Source: a virus
Lineage: Duplodnaviria > Heunggongvirae > Uroviricota > Caudoviricetes
Virus record (IMG/VR): IMGVR_UViG_3300008111_001458
DNA: 64,000 nucleotides
Strand: one strand, 5' to 3'
Positions 4,109 through 37,352 of the stretch are shown here, piece after piece. A program made the translations under genes and the position numbers. Numbering within the stretch: position 1 is the stretch's first letter; every line of letters begins with the position of its first letter. Under the pieces are notes generated by a model that was given only the letters and a program-made list of their open reading frames with translations, searched no databases and was not told the origin of the DNA.

Positions 4109-4239
4109 TTTTTAATCTTTTAATTTTAGCATTTGCTGTATACTGTTTAGTAGTATGGATCCATGCGTTAGTAACATACGATTGGACTAAATTTGAAGAG
4201 GATTCAAAAGACGACGATTTTTTGAAACCTTATGAATAA
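4105..4239 (+). CDS. Small membrane peptide (44 aa)
   Basis: Hand-found ORF MIFNLLILAFAVYCLVVWIHALVTYDW... It ends just upstream of the tmRNA acceptor piece. Confidence 0.2.
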   Translation: MIFNLLILAFAVYCLVVWIHALVTYDWTKFEEDSKDDDFLKPYE

Positions 4240-4243
4240 AGAA

Positions 4244-4307
4244 TTGTTGTAATTCCTTCAAAGTGAAGGCATTCTGGACGCGGGTTCGACTCCCGCCAGG
4301 TCCACCA
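4244..4307 (+). ncRNA. ssrA: tmRNA acceptor piece (3' half of the tRNA-like domain: T-arm + acceptor 3' strand + ACCA) of a permuted two-piece tmRNA
   Basis: The sequence ggcattctGGACGCGGGTTCGACTCCCGCCaggtccACCA is near-identical to the 3' end of canonical tmRNA. It ends in a discriminator A plus CCA. No 5' acceptor strand lies upstream, so it is not a tRNA. Confidence 0.6.
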
Positions 4308-4428
4308 ATAGAGATGATTATGAACACTACACAAACTATAAAATTAGCAGGATTTTTTCTAGGAACGTATATTTTATACAGACTAGGATTAGAAGTTTGG
4401 TGTATAGTTTATGGACTACTTTATTGAT

Positions 4429-4646
4429 GGGCCTGACATGGTTTCGACAGGGTGAGATAATAGAGACGGCAACACGGTAGGCGATGACCGTAAATCAAGC
4501 AAATCTATAAATGCAAACGATAATGCATTTGACTTTACAGCAATGAGCTTCACCGGTAACACTGTTGCCAATGACAGCAAATTTGCTCTAGCAGCCTAAG
4601 AAACTGCAAGTCCGGGGTAGCTATACCTTGTAACCCAAAATAGTGA
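4429..4646 (+). ncRNA. ssrA: tmRNA coding piece (5' acceptor strand GGGCCUG, D-loop analogue, resume codon and tag ORF ANDNAFDFTAMSFTGNTVANDSKFALAA, stop TAA at 4597-4599)
   Basis: gggcctgacatggtttcgacaggg matches the canonical tmRNA 5' end GGGGCUGAUUCUGGAUUCGACGGG. GGGCCUG pairs with caggucc of the upstream piece with a G3-U wobble. The reading frame 4514-4599 begins GCA-AAC-GAT (A-N-D) and ends ALAA-stop. Confidence 0.6.
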
Positions 4647-4672
4647 AAAGCCCCCTTGGGGGCTTTTCTTTA
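4646..4672. terminator. Bidirectional rho-independent terminator
   Basis: GC stem agccccc-tt-gggggct followed by a T run. It sits between the tmRNA coding piece (+) and the convergent lipoprotein gene (-). Confidence 0.6.
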
Positions 4673-5134
4673 TTGCGGATAGACTAAAACGTTTTCTTCG
4701 GTTCCGATAATAGGATCAACTATAAGTTTCCCAAATCCTAGCATGGTCTGATTAGTGTTAATAGCAATGTCTTTGTTATTGTTGCTGTTGACTATGGCAA
4801 GATCAGTGCTTTTCCCAATACCATAAATTTGAGTAAGGCTGGGCACAATTACACTAGCCCACCGCAGAGCTGTGTCGCCTGTGCTAGTAGGTTGCTGTAG
4901 CTTAGGACTGTTGTTTTCCGGTGCGCCTTGCTGTAATGCAATTACAGCGGCTACACGAGCCGTGGTGTCGCCACTATTGGCAATAGCTTCTAATGCCTTG
5001 TATCGTGCAATTTCTGCTTCTGCTCTTGCTAGGGCAATATTTTCTTGGGTTTGGGCGTATTGTTGGTAGTTGTTAGATGCACAACCAGTTAGTGTTATGA
5101 CGCAGATGGCGCCGGCGAGAATAGTTTTTCTCAT
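4670..5134 (-). CDS. Lipoprotein (signal peptide with lipobox LTGC)
   Basis: 154 aa. The N-terminus MRKTILAGAICVITLTGCASN fits a lipobox. It is the only minus-strand gene in the first 27 kb. Confidence 0.55.
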   Translation of the reverse strand: MRKTILAGAICVITLTGCASNNYQQYAQTQENIALARAEAEIARYKALEAIANSGDTTARVAAVIALQQGAPENNSPKLQQPTSTGDTALRWASVIVPSLTQIYGIGKSTDLAIVNSNNNKDIAINTNQTMLGFGKLIVDPIIGTEENVLVYPQ

Positions 5135-6200: not shown

Positions 6201-6236
6201 TTGATTTATAGGATAACTAAATGTATAGTTATACAT
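6201..6236 (+). promoter_or_regulatory. ahpC promoter TTGATT-17-TATAGT with a second palindrome ATGTATA-GT-TATACAT overlapping the -10
   Basis: -35 at 6201-6206 and -10 at 6224-6229. The inverted repeat at 6221-6236 overlaps the -10, the usual position for a repressor site. Confidence 0.45.
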
Positions 6237-6283
6237 AGAACTTGTTGTTCTTTACGTTTTCAACACACACTTAAGGAGATAAA

Positions 6284-6817
6284 ATGAAAACAGTTGGTGA
6301 TAAAATTGAAGCATTTGCCGTAACCGGCGTTAATCCTGGTAAAGATGATTTCTTTACCATTACTGAAAAGTCATACGAAGGTAAGTGGAAAGTAATTGTT
6401 TACTATCCAAAAGACTTTACATTTGTATGCCCAACAGAAATCGTAGCATACGATAAATTGAATAGTGATTTTGCCGATCGTGACGCAGTATTACTAACTG
6501 GTTCAACAGATAACGAATTCTGTAAACTGGCATGGCAAGCAGCCCATGAAGATCTTAAAAAAATCAAACATGTTCAGTTTGCTGATACACAGCGTAACGA
6601 ATTGAGCCTTATTGATCAGCTTGGCGTATTCTATGCTCCAGCAGGTGCTGCACTTCGTGCAACATTCATTGTTGATCCAGAGAATGTTATCCAACACATT
6701 ACTGTCAACAACTTGAATGTTGGTCGCTCACCAGAAGAAACACTTCGTGTATTAGACGCATTGCAAACAGGTGAACTTTGTGCTTGCAACCGTACAGTTG
6801 GCGGAGAGACACTGTAA
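6284..6817 (+). CDS. ahpC: Peroxiredoxin (AhpC/Prx1 family, typical 2-Cys)
   Basis: 177 aa with the peroxidatic motif FTFVCPTEI. RBS aaggag is 7 nt upstream. Confidence 0.85.
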   Translation: MKTVGDKIEAFAVTGVNPGKDDFFTITEKSYEGKWKVIVYYPKDFTFVCPTEIVAYDKLNSDFADRDAVLLTGSTDNEFCKLAWQAAHEDLKKIKHVQFADTQRNELSLIDQLGVFYAPAGAALRATFIVDPENVIQHITVNNLNVGRSPEETLRVLDALQTGELCACNRTVGGETL

Positions 6818-7428: not shown

Positions 7429-8454
7429 GTGAAAAAAATCATACTGACACTACTGGCGGCATTGACCGTTTCAGCACATGCAGCGGATCTAACAGGAGCA
7501 GGGGCAACATTTCCTTATCCTATCTATTCAAAATGGGCCGAAGCATATAAAGCAGCAACAGGCATCGGACTCAACTATCAATCAATTGGTTCAGGCGGCG
7601 GCATCCGTCAAATCAAAGCTAAGATTGTAGATTTTGGCGCCAGTGACATGCCACTAAAACAAGACGAATTAGACAAAGACGGTCTAATGCAATTCCCTGC
7701 AATCATTGGCGGAGTTGTGCCGATTGTAAACATTGATGGTATTGGTGCAGGACAACTTAAACTTACCTCAGACATTATTGCTGACATCTATATGGGTAAG
7801 ATCGTCAAGTGGGATCATCCCAGCATCACAGCAATCAATCCAGGATTAAAATTACCTAATGCAAATATCTCTGTGGTTCACCGCAGTGATGGTTCAGGTA
7901 CAACCTTTATATGGACTAACTGGTTAAGCAAGACTAATAAAGAATGGGCAGATAAAGTCAAAGACGGCACCGCAGTCAAATGGCCAATGGGTGTAGGTGG
8001 TAAGGGCAATGAAGGTGTAAGTGCTGTGGTCCAACAACTAAAAAATAGTATTGGTTATGTAGAATATGCCTATGCTAAACGCAACAAGATTCCACACGCA
8101 CAAGTCAAAAATCGTGATGGCAACTTTGTACAGCCTAGCGATGATACATTCAAGGCAGCGGCAGCAGGTGCAGACTGGGCAAATGCTCCAGGGTTCTATC
8201 TATTGCTAACAGACCAAAAAGGCAAGGACGCTTGGCCTATTACAGGTGCCAGTTTCATTCTCATGCATAAGCAACAAGAGGATGCACTAACAGGTCGTGC
8301 AGTTCTTAAGTTCTTTGATTGGAGTTACAAGAACGGCGGGCAGATGGCTACAGATTTAGAATATGTACATCTTCCACAATCTGTTATTACATTAGTACAG
8401 AATCATTGGAAGACTCAGTTAAAAGATAAGGATAGCAACGCTATTTGGAAGTAA
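7429..8454 (+). CDS. pstS: Phosphate ABC transporter substrate-binding protein
   Basis: 341 aa. GTG start with RBS aaggag, a signal peptide, and the PstS-family motifs TFPYPIY ... SIGSGGG ... GASD. Confidence 0.85.
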   Translation: MKKIILTLLAALTVSAHAADLTGAGATFPYPIYSKWAEAYKAATGIGLNYQSIGSGGGIRQIKAKIVDFGASDMPLKQDELDKDGLMQFPAIIGGVVPIVNIDGIGAGQLKLTSDIIADIYMGKIVKWDHPSITAINPGLKLPNANISVVHRSDGSGTTFIWTNWLSKTNKEWADKVKDGTAVKWPMGVGGKGNEGVSAVVQQLKNSIGYVEYAYAKRNKIPHAQVKNRDGNFVQPSDDTFKAAAAGADWANAPGFYLLLTDQKGKDAWPITGASFILMHKQQEDALTGRAVLKFFDWSYKNGGQMATDLEYVHLPQSVITLVQNHWKTQLKDKDSNAIWK

Positions 8455-8464
8455 GCAGTACCCA

Positions 8465-8495
8465 CCGCCAGTGATCACTGGCGGATCTATTTTAT
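8465..8495 (+). terminator. Terminator-like perfect palindrome CCGCCAGTGATCACTGGCGG followed by a T-rich tract
   Basis: 20-bp perfect inverted repeat at 8465-8484 followed by atctatttta. Confidence 0.45.
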
Positions 8496-8506
8496 AAGGA
8501 TTTAAA

Positions 8507-9919
8507 ATGAAAACATTACTTAAGGTAATGCTGGCGTCATCTGTGACAGCATTTATACCTGCACCTGCACACGCAGACGAATACAAAGACACACTTGAAA
8601 TTCTAAAAAATAAAAATATTCTTACACAGAAAGAATATGATATTAAACTTAAAGAATATGAAGAAAAAGAAGAAAACAAAAAGTTTATTGAACAGAGAAT
8701 TGACAGAGATGTCAGCGACTCAGTCAAATACAGACAGGCCAGAGTTAATGACGGATCAGTCACAGAAAACGGAATTGGACTCAAAAGCAAAGATGGCGGC
8801 AACACCGTCCAGCTTACAGGTCGACTACATATGGACTATCGTCAGTACTCCCCGGATTACGGTACAGGTCAAACCACAGATTCGTACCAGAATACTGCTG
8901 AAGCACGACGAGCCAGATTTGGAGTAAGAGGTCAGTTTGCCAAAGATTTCAAATATCAATTATTAGCAAACTTTGGTGCCAGTGATGGTTTTAGTTCAAC
9001 ATCGAGTACAGCAGATGAAATGTGGGTCAACTATGCTGCAAATCCAGAAGCACAGTTTCAATTTGGTTTATTCAAGATGCCATTCAGTCTTGAGCAGTTA
9101 ACAAGTTCAAACAATCTTGACTTTATGGAACGCAGTTTAATTGGTCAAAATGATACAGAGTTTATACCTGCTAAAGAAACTGGATTTATGTTACATGGTA
9201 TTCCTAAGCCTGGCTTAACATACGCTCTAGCATTAAGCAGAGGTAAGAGCAATAAGAGTGCCGAGTTTGATGGCTTTGACTACATTAGTCGTGTAACTAC
9301 AAACATCGCTGAACTAACCGGAAGCAAAGCATATACAGCACATTTAGGTGCCGCTTATAGTACAGGTGAAATCAAAAGCGGTGTAGCTCCAGCAAGTGGT
9401 AGAACAGAATCACGTATGCAATCAGGATGGTTTACAGGATCTGCTCTTAGCGGTGCAACTACAAGAACACGTCAAGGCCTCGAAGCTGCATTTGCTTATA
9501 ATGCATTTAAGGTGCAAGGCGAACATTTTCAATTTAATTATGATCCTGCAACAGGTAACGATCAGAAAATAAATGGATACTATGTGCAAGCTGTGTATAA
9601 TCTAACAGGTGAGTCACACTCATATAAAGATGGCGCATTTGGTTGGATCAAACCTGCTAATCCTTTGGACAAAGGTGGTCGTGGTGCATGGCAAGTTGGT
9701 GTACGTATGAGTGAGTTTGATGCCAGTGACATTACTGTAGCTACCGGCAAATCAAATCGTGCTACTGCTATGACATATGGTGTTACCTGGTTCTGCACAG
9801 ACAACCTACGTTTTATGTTAAATTATGTAGACACAAAATTTGATAGTCTAGTAGGCAGTTCAGGTAGTCGTGTAAACGGCGAACGTGCTGTTATGTTTAG
9901 AAGCCAACTAAGTTTTTAA
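8507..9919 (+). CDS. Outer-membrane porin, probably phosphate-selective OprO/OprP-like
   Basis: 470 aa with a signal peptide (AHA cleavage), C-terminal aromatic residue (F), beta-barrel-like alternating pattern, and position directly after pstS. The family call rests on weak motif recall. Confidence 0.5.
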   Translation: MKTLLKVMLASSVTAFIPAPAHADEYKDTLEILKNKNILTQKEYDIKLKEYEEKEENKKFIEQRIDRDVSDSVKYRQARVNDGSVTENGIGLKSKDGGNTVQLTGRLHMDYRQYSPDYGTGQTTDSYQNTAEARRARFGVRGQFAKDFKYQLLANFGASDGFSSTSSTADEMWVNYAANPEAQFQFGLFKMPFSLEQLTSSNNLDFMERSLIGQNDTEFIPAKETGFMLHGIPKPGLTYALALSRGKSNKSAEFDGFDYISRVTTNIAELTGSKAYTAHLGAAYSTGEIKSGVAPASGRTESRMQSGWFTGSALSGATTRTRQGLEAAFAYNAFKVQGEHFQFNYDPATGNDQKINGYYVQAVYNLTGESHSYKDGAFGWIKPANPLDKGGRGAWQVGVRMSEFDASDITVATGKSNRATAMTYGVTWFCTDNLRFMLNYVDTKFDSLVGSSGSRVNGERAVMFRSQLSF

Positions 9920-9941: not shown

Positions 9942-9967
9942 GCCCCATCTAATGGGGCTTTTTTTTG
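9942..9967 (+). terminator. Rho-independent terminator (gccccat-cta-atggggc + T9)
   Basis: 6-7 bp GC stem with a 3-nt loop followed by nine T. It contains the recurring CTAATGGG motif. Confidence 0.7.
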
Positions 9968-16591: not shown

Positions 16592-17667
16592 GAATCGAAG
16601 ATGAAATCAAATTAGATTTCAAAGATGTTCTTATTCGTCCTAAGCGCAGTACTTTATCAAGTCGCAAAGAAGTTGACTTAACAAGGACTTACAAATTTAA
16701 ACACAGTCGCGCCGAGTGGACAGGAGTTCCGATTATGGCCAGTAACATGGACGGTGTTGGTACACTAGAAATGGCTCATGCTCTATATCAACACAAAATG
16801 TTCACTTGCCTAGTTAAGAATATCAGTACGGTATACTTTGAAACAACCGTACAAGATATAGGAGGCAATCATTTCGCAGTAAGCACAGGGACTTCCGAAA
16901 AGGACTTTGAAAGATTAAGTAACATACTTAATTCTTATTCCGAAATAAAATTTATCTGTATAGATGTAGCAAATGGATATAGCGAACACTTCGGGGACTA
17001 TGTAGAAGAAGTGCGTGAGGCATTTCCTAATCACACAATTATCGCAGGTAACGTTGTTACCGCAGACATGACACAGGAGTTAATTTTACGTGGAGCAGAT
17101 ATTATCAAAGTGGGCATTGGTCCAGGCAGTGTTTGTACAACTAGGATACAAACTGGCGTCGGTTATCCTCAGCTCAGTGCTATTATTGAGTGTGCTGACG
17201 CTGCTCATGGTCTCGGCGGCCATATTATTGCTGATGGTGGTTGTGTGTGTCCCGGTGACATTGCTAAGGCGTTTGGCGCCGGAGCAGACTTTGTAATGTT
17301 AGGAGGCATGTTAGCCGGTCATGATGAGGGCGGCGGTGAAGTTATTGAAGAAATGCACGAACTTTCAAAACTTCAAAAAGATATGTTTTCAAATGATTAT
17401 GAAATTAAAAAATATGTAGAATTCTATGGAATGAGTTCAAATACTGCTATGAACAAGCATCATGGTGGCATAGCTGAATATCGTTCATCAGAAGGACGTA
17501 CGGTAAGAGTACCGTATAAGGGCCCGGTCCAAAGTACAATTTTGGATATGTTGGGCGGACTGCGTAGTTCTTGCACATATGTAGGTGCTGCAAGTCTTAA
17601 ACAATTATCTAAATGTACTACATTTATTAGGGTCAATATGCAATTTAATGATGTCTTTACGAGATAA
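16588..17667 (+). CDS. guaC: GMP reductase
   Basis: [23 protein letters not shown] ... [46 protein letters not shown] is almost collinear with E. coli GuaC. No CBS insert, which marks GuaC rather than IMPDH. Confidence 0.85.
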
Positions 17668-17748
17668 ATAAAAACGCAATTAGCACCCAATGGGCTAATT
17701 GTAACGAGCTCAGTGCTCATTAAATTCTTACTTTTTAAGGAGAAAAAT

Positions 17749-19662
17749 ATGTCAAAAATCATCGGTATCGATTTGGGTACCACAAACTCATGTGTAGCTG
17801 TTATTGAAAACGGCAAATCCAAAGTAATTGAAAACTCAGAAGGCGCAAGAACAACTCCGAGTATTGTTGCTTATACAGACAGCGATATTTTAGTAGGTGC
17901 TTCAGCAAAGCGTCAGGCGGTAACTAATCCCAAAAACACAATTTATGCATCTAAGCGGTTAATTGGACGTAAGTTCAATGAACAGGCTGTTCAGAAGGAC
18001 ATTGACCTAATGCCTTATGAAATTGTCAAGGCAACAAATGGTGATGCTTGGATTCGCGCACAAGGAAAAGAAATGGCACCTCCACAGGTGTCTGCAGAAG
18101 TTCTTCGCAAGATGAAAAAGACTGCAGAGGACTATTTAGGGCATGAAGTTACACAGGCTGTTATTACAGTGCCTGCTTACTTCAATGATAGTCAAAGACA
18201 GGCAACTAAAGATGCCGGTCAAATCGCTGGCTTAGAAGTTCTACGTATTATTAACGAACCTACTGCGGCTGCATTAAGCTACGGTGTTGACAAGACAGAC
18301 AAAGCTGATCGTAAGATTGCGGTGTATGACTTAGGTGGTGGCACATTTGATATCAGTATCATTGAGATTGCCAACGTCGAAGGCGACAAACAAATTGAAG
18401 TATTGTCAACAAACGGCGATACATTCTTAGGCGGTGAAGACTTTGACCAGCGCATTATGGATTATCTGGTTGAGGAATTTAAGAAAGAGCAAGGCATTGA
18501 TCTAACTAAAGATATGTTGGCACTACAACGTCTTAAGGACTCTGCTGAAAAAGCTAAGATTGAATTATCTAATTCTACACAAACTGAAGTTAATCTTCCA
18601 TACATTACTGCCGATGCTAGTGGTCCTAAACATCTAGTGGTAAAAATTACCAAGGCAAAATTGGAACAGTTAGTTGACGATTTAATTCAACGTTCATTAG
18701 AACCTTGTCGTATTGCTATGAAAGATGCCGGAGTTACCGCAGATCAGATCGACGAAGTTATTCTAGTTGGCGGCCAAACTCGCATGCCAAAGGTACAAGA
18801 AGAAGTAGAACGTTTATTTGGAAAAGCGCCACGTAAAGATGTTAACCCAGACGAAGCAGTAGCAGTTGGTGCTGCTATCCAAGGTGCTGTGTTGGGTGGT
18901 GATCGTAAAGATGTCCTATTGTTAGATGTTACTCCATTAACTTTGGGTATTGAAACAGTAGGCGGTGTAATGGCCAAACTGGTTGCTAAGAATACTACTA
19001 TTCCAACTAAGGCAAATCAAATTTTCAGTACAGCTGATGACAATCAACCTGCTGTTACTATTCGTGTGTTCCAAGGAGAACGCGAATTGGCACATCATAA
19101 CAAATTGTTAGGCGAATTTAATCTTGAAGGTATTGATCCAGCACCACGTGGTATGCCTCAAATTGAAGTTACATTTGATATTGATGCTAATGGTATTTTA
19201 AGCGTAAGTGCCAAAGACAAAAATACTGGTAAAGAAAATAAAATTACCATTAAAGCTAATAGCGGCATTACTGAAGATGAAATCAAACGTATGATCGCTG
19301 AAGCAGAACAATATGCAGAAGAAGATAAAAAAGCACGTGAAGTTATTGAAACACGTAATGGTGCATTATCTGAACTGTATACAATTCGCAGAGAATTAGA
19401 AGCAGAAAAAGATCTTGCTACAGAAGAAGAATGGAAAATAATTGAAGATGCACTAGAGGCTGCTGAAAAATTAGTCAATGATAATAGTGACATTGAAGAA
19501 ATTAAGAAAGGTCCTTTCAATGTAGCCGATGCTGCAAAACCTTTGTTTGAAAAAATTAAAGCCAAACGCGAAGCTGCCAAAGCAGAACAATCTGCACCGC
19601 AGCCAACTGATGGTGAAGTGATCGATGCTTCCTTTACAGCAACTGAAGGCAAGGCATCTTAA
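17749..19662 (+). CDS. dnaK: Hsp70 chaperone DnaK
   Basis: [33 protein letters not shown] and the EEVD-less bacterial C-terminus are present. The start is reset to ATG 17749 (RBS aaggag). Confidence 0.93.
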
Positions 19663-19753
19663 GAATACACATATGTGTGTATAATGTTGCGGTACCTAAT
19701 GGGCCGCAACATTGAGCATAAAGCTCATATTCTTACTTTAAAAGGAGATTAAT

Positions 19754-20191
19754 ATGAATAATAATCAGTTAGCACAAATTACAGCTCTTAACAGAGCTCT
19801 TATTGGATTTGACACACTGTTTGATCAAATGGAAAGACGTTTTTCTAATAGTGTATCTAATAACTATCCACCTCACAACATTCTTAAAACTGGTGAAAAT
19901 CAGTATGAGATTCAATTAGCAGTTACTGGATTTGATAAAACAGAAATTTCTGTTACTGTAGAGGACGGAATTCTTATTGTTAAAGGTGAAAGCATGGCTA
20001 CAGATCATGCGCCAGAACAATACATTCATCGCGGTCTTGCTACTCGCGATTTTGTTAAAGAATTTCCTCTAGCAGAACATATTGAAGTTACTGGAGCGGA
20101 AACCAAAAATGGTATGTTAACCATTAAGTTGGTCCGTAATGTTCCAGAGTCTGCGAAACCGAAAGTCATTGACATTGTAGACATTAAGTAA
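19754..20191 (+). CDS. Small heat-shock protein (Hsp20 / alpha-crystallin family)
   Basis: 145 aa with an alpha-crystallin domain pattern (EIQLAVTGFDKTEISVTVEDGILIVKGE ... NGMLTIKL). Confidence 0.8.
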   Translation: MNNNQLAQITALNRALIGFDTLFDQMERRFSNSVSNNYPPHNILKTGENQYEIQLAVTGFDKTEISVTVEDGILIVKGESMATDHAPEQYIHRGLATRDFVKEFPLAEHIEVTGAETKNGMLTIKLVRNVPESAKPKVIDIVDIK

Positions 20192-20197
20192 TATAAT

Positions 20198-20223
20198 TAA
20201 GGGGAAGGAAACTTCCCCTTAAT
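20198..20223 (+). terminator. Perfect 11-bp hairpin TTAAGGGGAAG-gaaa-CTTCCCCTTAA (terminator or attenuator between hsp20 and clpS)
   Basis: Exact inverted repeat with a GNRA loop and no strong T tract. Confidence 0.4.
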
Positions 20224-20240
20224 TAACCTACAGAGGAAAT

Positions 20241-20549
20241 ATGGCAGACGTAGAAACTAAAATCAAAGAAGTAACAAAGACAGTTGAAACTCAACCACCC
20301 AATCATTGGAAGGTAGTATTCTTAAACGATGATTATACTCCCATGGAATTTGTTGTTGCTCTTTTGGTTACTATTTTTAGGCACAGTGAACAATCTGCCG
20401 AGCAGATCACAATAGAAATACACAACACGGGCAGTGCTGTTGTTGGTTTATACACACACGAAATTGCAGAACAAAAGTCTATTGATGCAACAACCGTTTG
20501 CAGACAACACGGTCATCCTTTACAAATTACAATCGAAGAAGACAAATAA
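20241..20549 (+). CDS. clpS: ATP-dependent Clp protease adaptor ClpS
   Basis: VVFLNDDYTPMEFVVALLVTIF ... LYTHEIAEQK closely parallels E. coli ClpS. Confidence 0.85.
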   Translation: MADVETKIKEVTKTVETQPPNHWKVVFLNDDYTPMEFVVALLVTIFRHSEQSAEQITIEIHNTGSAVVGLYTHEIAEQKSIDATTVCRQHGHPLQITIEEDK

Positions 20550-20817: not shown

Positions 20818-21384
20818 ATGAGTTTAAAAGAAATTACCAAAGATCTTCATCACGAAGCAGAAACAACCCAATTTGCTAAGATGTTACTTAGCGGAAAAAT
20901 TACTAAAGAAGATTATGCCAACTACCTTTATCAGTTAGTATTAATTTATAATGCTATAGAGTTAGGTAATCGAGTAGAAGGCAATTTTAAAAATCTTCCT
21001 GGTTTAGAAAGAACACACGCAATCTATCAAGACTTTATTGAGATCGCAGGTGTTGATCACAATTACAAATGGTTACCTGGAACTATAGACTATTACAACT
21101 ATCTCTTAAATTTAGTTCGTGATCCTGCGCATCGTCCTAAAATCAAAGCTCATCTATATTGTCGACATATGGGAGATCTGTATGGTGGTCAAATAATTAA
21201 AAAACAAGTAGCACATATTAGCAAAGGTCGTTTTTATGATTTTAAAGATGCAGATGCATTAAAAATGTCCATACGTGCAGAACTAACTGATGACCTAGGA
21301 GACGAAGCAAGAGTTGCGTTTGAATGGGCCATTAAAATGATGAGAGAATTGTATAATGAGTCAGGTCTGGAACAGTCTAATTGA
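20818..21384 (+). CDS. Heme oxygenase
   Basis: 188 aa. The CRHMGDLYGGQ block matches the HO-1 signature YTRYLGDLSGGQ. Confidence 0.7.
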   Translation: MSLKEITKDLHHEAETTQFAKMLLSGKITKEDYANYLYQLVLIYNAIELGNRVEGNFKNLPGLERTHAIYQDFIEIAGVDHNYKWLPGTIDYYNYLLNLVRDPAHRPKIKAHLYCRHMGDLYGGQIIKKQVAHISKGRFYDFKDADALKMSIRAELTDDLGDEARVAFEWAIKMMRELYNESGLEQSN

Positions 21385-22036
21385 AATACAAAAACTGTTA
21401 GAAAAAAGATTTTCAGAGACAGGCATTGAAACTTTTGAGCCCGGAATGGAAAGATTTAATCAACCGGGTTGGGTAAATAGAGTTTGGTGCAGCGATCATT
21501 ATCGCAGAGCTCATGTCGACGTAGTTGACGCCCGATCCTCAAAGGGCCTTTGGATGATGCATTGCTGCATCTTTCCTCACATACACAATCCTGCTCCTAT
21601 TTTTGGATTTGATGTAATTGCAGGAAAAAATAAAATCACAGGTTGTTTTATAGACTACAGCCCAACAGCTGATAAACAGCATCCTATGATCGAATATTTT
21701 GCTGAAGAAGTCAGTAGATACGAATGGATCCGCAAACGTGAACTACCTGAATGGGCGCAACGTATATTCAGTTCACACATGGTGGCCGCTGGCAATGTGC
21801 AAGAAGAATCAGAATTATCTCAAATTAGCGGTCTAGCGAACATTCTAGTAAATCATTATTTAGAAACAGTAGGCGAAACAAATCACAAAGTTGCAGATAC
21901 AACGTTTGAGCAAAATTATTACGCACAGAATCAAAAACAAAATCCGCACACCCCTAGAGTTATGGTTAGTTTGGGGCTTAGTGAAGAAGATGTTAAGCAT
22001 TTTATTCAAGATTGTTTATTTCCAGAAATAAACTAA
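21356..22036 (+). CDS. Ferredoxin-dependent bilin reductase (PebS/PcyA/PcyX-like)
   Basis: 226 aa. N-terminal W..L...QK pattern and the central FDBR core (HIHNPAPIFGFDVIAG ... FIDYSP). It is adjacent to the heme oxygenase that supplies biliverdin. Confidence 0.7.
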   Translation: MSQVWNSLIEIQKLLEKRFSETGIETFEPGMERFNQPGWVNRVWCSDHYRRAHVDVVDARSSKGLWMMHCCIFPHIHNPAPIFGFDVIAGKNKITGCFIDYSPTADKQHPMIEYFAEEVSRYEWIRKRELPEWAQRIFSSHMVAAGNVQEESELSQISGLANILVNHYLETVGETNHKVADTTFEQNYYAQNQKQNPHTPRVMVSLGLSEEDVKHFIQDCLFPEIN

Positions 22037-36573: not shown

Positions 36574-37131
36574 GTGAAAAAAATCGAGGACTTCAATGCC
36601 GAAGATCGTATTGATATCGAACTACTCGGAAACAGTATACATTTCTTAGTGGGAGAAATAAATGAGGACACGATCAAAAGTGCTATAAAATGGATTGTTT
36701 ACGAAAACCTAGAGTCAAAGGAAAAAACATTAACTTTATACGTTAATTCAACAGGCGGTGATCTTTATCAAGCATTTGCCTTAATTGATGTAATGCGTAG
36801 CAGTAATCACACAATTAGAACTGTTGGTATCGGTGCTGTAATGAGTGCAGCATTTTTAATTTTTGCCAGCGGTGATCAAGGTGAAAGATACGCAGCTCGT
36901 AATACTAGTTTTATGTGTCATCAGTTTTCAGAAAGTATGGATAACAAATATCATGACCTTAAAGCTACTATGCGAGAAAATGATTTATGTAATGAAAAAA
37001 TGGTACAAATATTAAAAGACGCTACAGGACTTGCTCCTAGCGTAGTCAAAAAGAAATTACTGCCCGCCAGTGATGTTTATCTATCATCCCAGGAAGTCAT
37101 AGATCTCAACGTTGCAGATCATCTGTTATAA
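36574..37131 (+). CDS. ClpP-like serine protease subunit
   Basis: GTG start with RBS aatggag. [21 protein letters not shown] ... [31 protein letters not shown] matches the ClpP core, including Ser and His catalytic positions. Confidence 0.7.
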
Positions 37132-37133
37132 AT

Positions 37134-37352
37134 ATGTCTAAAGAAGATATTATTAAGTTCGACGGAACTATTGTAGAAGTTCTGCCCAACACAACTTATC
37201 GTGTAAAATTAGCAGATACCCAAACAGTAGTATATGCTTATTCTAGCGGTAAAATTAGGAAGAACAACATTAAAATTCTGTTAGGTGATACAGTAACTTT
37301 GGAGTTTAGCCCCTATGACCTTTCCAAAGGAAGGATTGTTTACCGAAAATAA
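37134..37352 (+). CDS. infA: Translation initiation factor IF-1
   Basis: 72 aa. [64 protein letters not shown] is near-collinear with E. coli InfA. Confidence 0.88.

Follow-up and report, generated by a model that had tools for sequence, protein, structure and literature searches.

What is the sequence module that stands in the same form before dnaK and hsp20 of a viral genome, and at which level would it act? The question is raised by the 64,000-nucleotide stretch of Caudoviricetes DNA analysed here in full (IMG/VR record IMGVR_UViG_3300008111_001458; hereafter the window), for which an earlier note, made from the sequence alone, had described upstream of both genes the same succession of a hairpin, a mini-hairpin and a pyrimidine-rich tract next to the Shine-Dalgarno (SD) sequence. 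The two sequences are as described, and with a covariance model (R1, built from 75 two-hairpin leaders of related loci) the two sites rank first and second in the window at 28.5 bits (E 1.5e-4) and 24.7 bits (E 1.4e-3), the next match reaching 18.2 bits. We read the leaders of dnaK and hsp20, with a probability of roughly 70%, as ROSE-like RNA-thermometer elements of the 5′ untranslated region (5′UTR). The suggestion in the note that the pyrimidine tract could be a thermosensor was right in kind, since by resemblance and structure prediction this tract is the anti-SD strand of a ROSE-like hairpin.

Architecture of the two leaders

The leaders cover positions 17663-17751 (dnaK) and 19683-19756 (hsp20), and folding predicts three hairpins in both, which we call H1, H2 and H3. 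The features, in order along the window, are the following.

17663..17670, + strand: GATAAATA box with the likeness of a T4-type late promoter, 5 nt 5′ of H1 of the dnaK leader
17676..17702, + strand: H1 of the dnaK leader; 9-bp stem, bulged A17685, C-C/G-G top and CAAU loop (from the fold)
17706..17718, + strand: mini-hairpin H2 of the dnaK leader; GAGC-ucagu-GCUC, 4 bp (from the fold)
17725..17744, + strand: H3 of the dnaK leader, the presumed sensor; anti-SD UUCUU-A-CUU (17725-17733) against SD AAG-GAGAA (17737-17744)
17749..19662, + strand: dnaK coding sequence (Hsp70; Pfam HSP70, 838 bits)
19683..19713, + strand: H1 of the hsp20 leader; 11-bp stem, bulged A19694, C-C/G-G top and UAAU loop (from the fold and the model alignment)
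19714..19726, + strand: mini-hairpin H2 of the hsp20 leader; GAGC-auaaa-GCUC, 4 bp (from the fold and covariation)
19725..19757, + strand: alternative outer helix of the hsp20 leader; UCAUAUU (19725-19731) against AAUAUGA (19751-19757), the minimum-free-energy (MFE) structure of the 48-nt segment
19731..19748, + strand: H3 of the hsp20 leader; anti-SD UCUU-A-CUU (19731-19738) against SD AAG-GAGA (19742-19748), A19735 bulged
19754..20191, + strand: hsp20 coding sequence, an IbpA-type small heat-shock protein (Pfam HSP20 and alignments)

The upstream border of the module therefore lies further out than had been drawn, and takes in the GATAAATA box. The string CC(Y)AATGGG, previously taken for a hairpin loop, is for the most part paired: CC and GG form the top two C-G pairs of H1 beneath a YAAU tetraloop, and the Y below the bulged A is paired to the third G. 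H1 of the hsp20 leader begins 21 nt past the dnaK stop codon. The H3 of dnaK, which is the MFE structure between 10 and 25 C, has a UUU loop and a bulged A17730, and the outer helix of the hsp20 leader is predicted to enclose H3 plus the hsp20 AUG. Folding of the whole leaders gave z-scores of -2.7 and -4.6, the latter being that of the hsp20 leader.

The anti-SD of both leaders contains UUACU (17728-17732 and 19733-19737). The predicted probability that the SD is unpaired increases between 5 C and 50 C from 0.05 to 0.33 for dnaK, and from 0.01-0.05 at 5-20 C to 0.27-0.40 at 42-50 C for hsp20; at 10 C the two leaders give 0.02-0.07. In silico removal of the bulged A from H3 locked the SD, and replacement of both C by A opened it. 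Locking and opening on such changes is the classic behaviour of ROSE mutants (PMC3669281).

A search of both strands of the window for exact ATTCTTACTTT, for CCYAATGGG and for GAGC-N5-GCTCAT found each of them at these two sites and nowhere else. What had been counted as a third copy, the hairpin at 9942-9967 behind the porin gene, is a canonical intrinsic terminator, GCCCCAT-cta-ATGGGGC and then T8, and gives no match to R1; the string CTAATGGG spans its loop and 3′ stem and is shared by accident. Neither H1 appears to be such a terminator, as no T run lies 3′ of either and a terminator scan lists neither. The 12-bp palindrome at 19667-19678 likewise does not belong to the module, for it is not conserved: relatives have at this place a non-palindromic CA-rich promoter spacer (TTGACACACAGACAGA..).

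Conservation, covariation and restriction to chaperone genes

The DnaK of the window has more than 590 relatives among IMG/VR viral contigs, some of which are 200-350 kb long. For comparison we used 80 related loci together with the window (~750 kb for searches by regular expression), from which 189 leaders were strictly parsed. The module is conserved in related genomes, as the earlier reading had required, with ~280 related leaders in viral contigs, nearly all of which precede dnaK, hsp20 or groES. In 73 of the 80 loci hsp20 follows dnaK and has the same leader. The 130 nt upstream of dnaK in these loci almost invariably consist of (G/T)ATAAATA, a few bases, a hairpin of variable stem and often a mini-hairpin, followed by (A/U)UCUU(G/A)CUU, a short A/U loop, AAGGAGA and ATG. 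What stays constant in H1 is its top (Y, bulged purine, CC..GG, G), the stem itself being variable, and H2 is optional and missing from many relatives.

The leader is restricted to chaperone genes. A loose regular expression applied to both strands of the comparison set gave 165 matches, comprising dnaK, hsp20, a 95-aa GroES gene and one stray, and a search of 935 kb with R1 gave 125 matches at E <= 1e-3, all but two of them at the starts of dnaK, hsp20 or groES. Exact scans of IMG/VR with the commonest leaders of two types, which have G or A as the bulged purine, returned at least 120 (G-type) and at least 118 (A-type) stretches; the genes downstream, among the matches listed, were mostly very diverse hsp20, then dnaK, then groES.

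Two observations stand at the edge of this set. An AhpC/peroxiredoxin gene (6284-6817) is preceded by the third-best R1 match in the window (6219-6292; 18.2 bits, E 0.055), in which a hairpin and CUUAAGGAG are present and the bulged-purine top is missing; we excluded this match as a member. The same leader is also seen on small unknown open reading frames (ORFs; L129:3578-3642, L189, L108 and L166), which fall into a 63-aa family (MFQAINTM..) that has H1 and an 80-81-aa family (MVNAKDFQ..) that is without it. Going by their leaders, these two families may be further members of the regulon.

H1 and H2 both covary as RNA helices. On a model-guided alignment the pairs of H1 are 87-98% standard and 280 double-change cells were counted, against 86 +/- 11 after shuffling and 18-44 with slid partners. 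Because MAFFT puts the 3′ strand of H1 out of place when it aligns the three-hairpin leaders, only H2 was counted on that alignment: it is 96.8% paired, three of its four pairs covary, and there are 17 double-change cells against 4.8 after shuffling. The core of the anti-SD occurs as CUU-G-CUU, CUU-A-CUU and CUC-G-CUU, all of which are still complementary to AAG-GAG.

Predictions for the relatives are also consistent with masking of the SD. Its predicted accessibility at 10 C is 0.38 in the leaders as compared with 0.46 in a control set from the same contigs, 172 further genes with AGGAG (p = 5e-4). Furthermore, the duplex between a leader and its own start-codon region has a predicted energy of -4.4 kcal/mol against -2.9 kcal/mol for mismatched pairs (p = 6e-17), and at least six distinct lineage-specific pairings of this kind were found, that of the window hsp20 being UCAUAUU/AAUAUGA.

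The module extends to cultured phages and to cells. It lies upstream of hsp20 in the cyanomyophages S-PM2, S-TIM4 and S-RIM2 (30-35 bits with R1) and is present weakly in the Pelagibacter phage HTVC115P. The exact G-type leader has only 46 matches in the genomes of 185,579 species. About 20 of these are hsp20 of SAR11-like single-cell genomes, in which a sigma-32-like CCCATCT box is followed by H1 and the same leader, and five are alphaproteobacterial dnaK (Micavibrio-like and others) with H3 present and H1 absent. Among these cellular loci (L206-L250), H1 of the SAR11-like hsp20 reads GACGCCUAAUAGGGUC, and the leader is the identical UCUUGCUUAAUAAAGGAGA. Since SAR11-like hsp20 and some cellular dnaK carry it, the leader is not phage-specific but common to phages and marine hosts. 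The earlier proposal of a phage-specific promoter or RNA-leader class thus stands as regards an RNA leader on chaperone genes, and falls as regards both the promoter and the restriction to phages.

Likeness to ROSE thermometers

What defines the ROSE-like class is an imperfect pairing of the SD with a U(U/C)GCU anti-SD of the 3′-proximal hairpin, and short versions with two hairpins occur in Pseudomonas (PMC3669281). The anti-SD of the relatives, UUGCU or UCGCU, is this consensus. By prediction the leaders share with the class an SD-masking hairpin and a series of two to four hairpins with a stable one at the 5′ end, and they share its location upstream of an IbpA-type hsp20, in what would be the 5′UTR; dnaK and groES are atypical targets. 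When compared with Rfam ROSE_3, the leaders of the G-type relative L061 scored 35.6 bits (hsp20; E 4e-5) and 26.5 bits (dnaK; E 0.009). The hsp20 leader of L061 aligns end to end with the ROSE_3 consensus, which has a bulged-G H1 top (GAU-G-CCG..CGG-GUC) and an anti-SD hairpin. This alignment and the shared H1 top make the whole module, H1 included, look like a short ROSE-like thermometer.

The ROSE_3 element of Pseudomonas ibpA (RF02523; Krajewski et al. 2013, PMC3669281) resembles the phage leaders in its stable 5′ hairpin, where a purine bulges out beneath C-G pairs, and in its place upstream of an IbpA-type small heat-shock gene, and the G-type phage relatives also in its short second hairpin and a U(U/C)GCU whose bulged G lies in the strand masking the SD. 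The window differs from it in having A instead of G at both bulges and the extra mini-hairpin H2. The phage element more generally is found in phage genomes, behind phage promoters and not sigma-32, and also on dnaK and groES; the scores of relatives are below threshold and the window is without a score. The E. coli ibpA 5′UTR (ROSE_2, RF01832; 100 bits with ROSE_2) has the same last-hairpin architecture as the phage leaders (AUUCUCGCUGAUUUCAGGAG compared with AUUCUUGCUUAAUUAAGGAG), where CUC-G-CUG/CAG-GAG with a 4-nt loop matches the phage CUU-G-CUU/AAG-GAG, and its first hairpin contains CGCC-UGAU-GGGU, like the phage H1 top. The E. coli element is, however, longer; phage leaders reach only 22.8 bits with ROSE_2 (gathering score 65), and E. 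coli ibpA gives no R1 match at E <= 1.

A third comparison bears on the bulge itself. The avalong thermometer of Anabaena has a bulged U, and hence a non-G, opposite the SD and is still a working thermosensor (PMC4152365), so that a non-G bulge is not disqualifying for function. It shares with the window leaders a ROSE-like anti-SD of this kind and differs from them in its long needle-like first hairpin, its cellular origin and the identity of the bulge (U and not A). The best sub-threshold Rfam match of the window hsp20 leader is freshwater-2 (RF02980), which also has three hairpins and then AAGGAGA..AUG. We rejected this family because the score was 24.7 bits (E 0.53) against a gathering score of 49.9, and the first hairpin was misaligned onto the non-conserved palindrome. 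Freshwater-2 is moreover without the UCUU-R-CUU anti-SD, and no relative examined reached its threshold.

A number of observations weigh against the thermometer. The window leaders, with UUACU, are without the defining G and hence do not match the ROSE motif, and they have no Rfam ROSE match at E <= 10; the G-type relatives too remain under the ROSE_3 gathering score of 43 bits (15 loci and four isolate loci). The two sides of H3 never change together across relatives, this hairpin being invariant, and covariation is therefore neutral on it, neither supporting nor contradicting it. The pair flanking H3 shows no covariation, for which reason an extension of H3 by flanking pairs was dropped. The melting of H3 is predicted to be gradual, without a sharp transition, and in isolation the hairpin is only as stable as shuffled sequence (-1.9 kcal/mol, z = +0.5). 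The difference in SD accessibility between leaders and control genes is modest. Finally, a coupled change from G to A in H1 and H3, described below, is not predicted by a purely cis-acting thermometer.

Alternative readings, genomic setting and meaning

A site upstream of heat-shock genes would also suit a DNA-level element, be it a phage-specific promoter or a repressor operator (CIRCE-like, sigma-32 or sigma-54), and the TTAGCAC in H1 of the window dnaK equals the first seven bases of the left arm of CIRCE. That heptamer, in one copy, is however all there is of the CIRCE/HrcA inverted repeat (TTAGCACTC-N9-GAGTGCTAA), the right arm being absent and relatives having no counterpart, and in the leader sequences read neither sigma-32 (CTTGAA..CCCCAT) nor sigma-54 (GG-N10-GC) boxes occur at a fixed spacing, so that none of the three fits in spacing or conservation. 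In 103 of the 189 parsed leaders ATAAATA ends 2-5 nt 5′ of the first paired base of H1, the others having TATAAT or nothing, and in related loci the hsp20 leader stands behind TTGACA-N17-TATAAT, an ATAAATA box or just the dnaK stop codon. A module that lies behind differing promoter types or none, and whose H1 and H2 covary as RNA helices, is not a promoter. The stems vary freely with compensatory changes, so that structure is kept and sequence is not, and the conserved core adjoins the SD. The DNA-level reading is thus largely refuted, and we consider it very improbable. The same leader might instead serve constitutive high expression as in T7 gene 10, where the 5′ stem-loop would protect the mRNA and a pyrimidine enhancer would act with AAGGAG, without any sensing. 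In favour of this, the transcript would open directly with H1 should ATAAATA be its promoter, the thermodynamic stability of H3 at 37 C is low, and CUUACUUUA of the leader seems to resemble the T7 epsilon enhancer, UUAACUUUA. We did not retain this likeness as the explanation because the core varies yet stays complementary to AAG-GAG, with no one fixed enhancer sequence. The confinement of the leader to chaperone genes, with its absence from others including those behind ATAAATA boxes, and the likeness to experimentally proven thermometers further make a constitutive leader improbable.

More serious is the possibility of a protein operator, which arises from the bulged purine. H1 and H3 have a common local motif, 5′-U R C-3′ opposite 5′-G G-3′, and the purine R is identical in both hairpins in 188 of the 189 parsed leaders (G,G in 142 and A,A in 46). 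In A-type phages, including that of the window, R is A in the dnaK, hsp20 and groES leaders alike, and on a neighbour-joining tree of DnaK the A/G type requires at least two changes in 100/100 bootstraps. This coupling is a hint of a shared trans-acting reader, possibly the phage IbpA-like Hsp20. E. coli IbpA represses its own ROSE-like 5′UTR, for which it needs R93 and Y34 (PMC10474464), and also controls rpoH (PMC10410725); these mRNA-binding residues are near-universal among unique phage Hsp20 proteins (Y/F34 in 149 of 150, R93 in 147 of 150) and correspond by alignment to Y38 and R98 of the window Hsp20. The leader could accordingly be mainly an operator, in which phage Hsp20 would bind the H1 top and H3 and repress hsp20, dnaK and groES until titrated by aggregates, and would be an aggregation sensor instead of, or alongside, a thermometer. 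Such binding is putative, very few events in evolution may underlie the A/G switch, a mixed leader exists, and R97 and K98 of IbpA are only partly conserved in phage Hsp20; the operator is also compatible with the thermometer and not exclusive of it. We therefore regard it as unlikely to be the main function, though the strongest of the alternatives. A reader acting in trans, for which the phage IbpA-like Hsp20 is the most likely candidate, may recognise the H1 top and H3 as a pair of sites; this is a proposal that we hold more tentatively still.

Two further observations concern this purine. The only clear mixed case found is the hsp20 leader of L276, with G at the H1 bulge (GUAGUGCC..GGGCUAC) and A in the anti-SD (UCUUACUU), which may be an intermediate in the G/A switch. 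At the Hsp20 column of T58 (A54 in E. coli IbpA), T is found in 29 of 29 A-type proteins and A or S in 121 of 121 G-type proteins, for which phylogeny is a possible cause.

For the ROSE-like thermometer we propose the following course of events. The GATAAATA box matches the T4-type late box TATAAATA in 7/8 positions and is a putative promoter; an ATAAATA-type box also precedes other start codons in the window. Transcription of dnaK would probably start just past the GATAAATA box, and the mRNA would begin with H1. The window hsp20 copy has only TATAAT, overlapping H1, and no sigma-70-type promoter passes the scan upstream of it, so that hsp20 may be co-transcribed with dnaK. H1, with its one bulged purine, would be the stable hairpin, H2 a small helper and H3 the working part, in which UCUU-A-CUU is predicted to pair imperfectly with the SD AAG-GAGA, leaving one bulged purine, and in hsp20 an extra helix would cover the AUG. 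At low temperature the ribosome could then not bind, and melting of H3, by heat or possibly by release of a bound protein, would allow the chaperone to be translated. As dnaK, hsp20 and, in relatives, groES have the same leader, the chaperones would be switched together at translation whatever their promoter. The phage probably makes its own chaperones only under heat or protein damage.

The collection of phage records holds no near-identical DNA, and no deposited phage is a close DNA relative; PHROGs gave almost nothing for ten large ORFs of the window, with zero structural-gene matches. The source is here treated as a large aquatic phage. Overlapping the hsp20 stop codon is a perfect sigma-70 consensus promoter (TTGACA-17-TATAAT, 20169-20197), and 3′ of it lie a hairpin with a 14-bp stem (20194-20225) and then clpS (20241-20549). 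With clpS the next gene after hsp20, the three genes dnaK, hsp20 and clpS form a proteostasis cluster. Elsewhere in the window lies a tmRNA gene of permuted, two-piece form and betaproteobacterial type (4209-4690, +), also present in a related viral contig (L048:7083-7455), whose tag peptide according to ARAGORN is ANDNAFDFTAMSFTGNTVANDSKFALAA. Host-like auxiliary genes lie at 7429-9919 (pstS and phosphate-selective porin O/P) and 20818-22036 (heme oxygenase and ferredoxin-dependent bilin reductase), and a gene for GMP reductase is also present. A ClpP-like ORF (36574-37131) is followed by a 72-aa IF-1-like ORF (37134-37352), both labelled by reading the sequences with no family search, and the ATG of the latter overlaps a TATAAATA box.

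Chaperones encoded by phages, such as the Hsp20 of cyanophages and the DnaK of large aquatic phages, usually appear in gene lists as auxiliary, with no mention of their control. We found no description of hsp20 thermometers in phages or cyanophages, or of ROSE elements in phages, in the literature searched, whose coverage leaves out most subscription journals. Judged from the sequences, three features appear new relative to known ROSE elements: A at the bulges, an extension to dnaK and groES behind phage promoters, and the invisibility to Rfam. Since the Rfam models miss these elements, they would amount to a sizeable unannotated branch of the ROSE family, in which the A-for-G variant, coupled between two hairpins, is a natural experiment on the role of the conserved bulged purine. 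If a protein reader does exist, hsp20, dnaK and groES would form a self-contained, aggregation-sensing translational regulon independent of host sigma-32, and the concerted G-to-A switch at both hairpins of three leaders would reflect RNA sites co-evolving with their reader. Collectively our data suggest that an RNA sensor of the phage's own stands on the chaperone genes of hundreds of aquatic phage contigs, among them the cultured S-PM2, S-TIM4 and S-RIM2, and that one lineage has extended this sensor to dnaK and groES. If this is true, such phages could supply chaperones in response to stress without recourse to the heat-shock sigma factor of the host.

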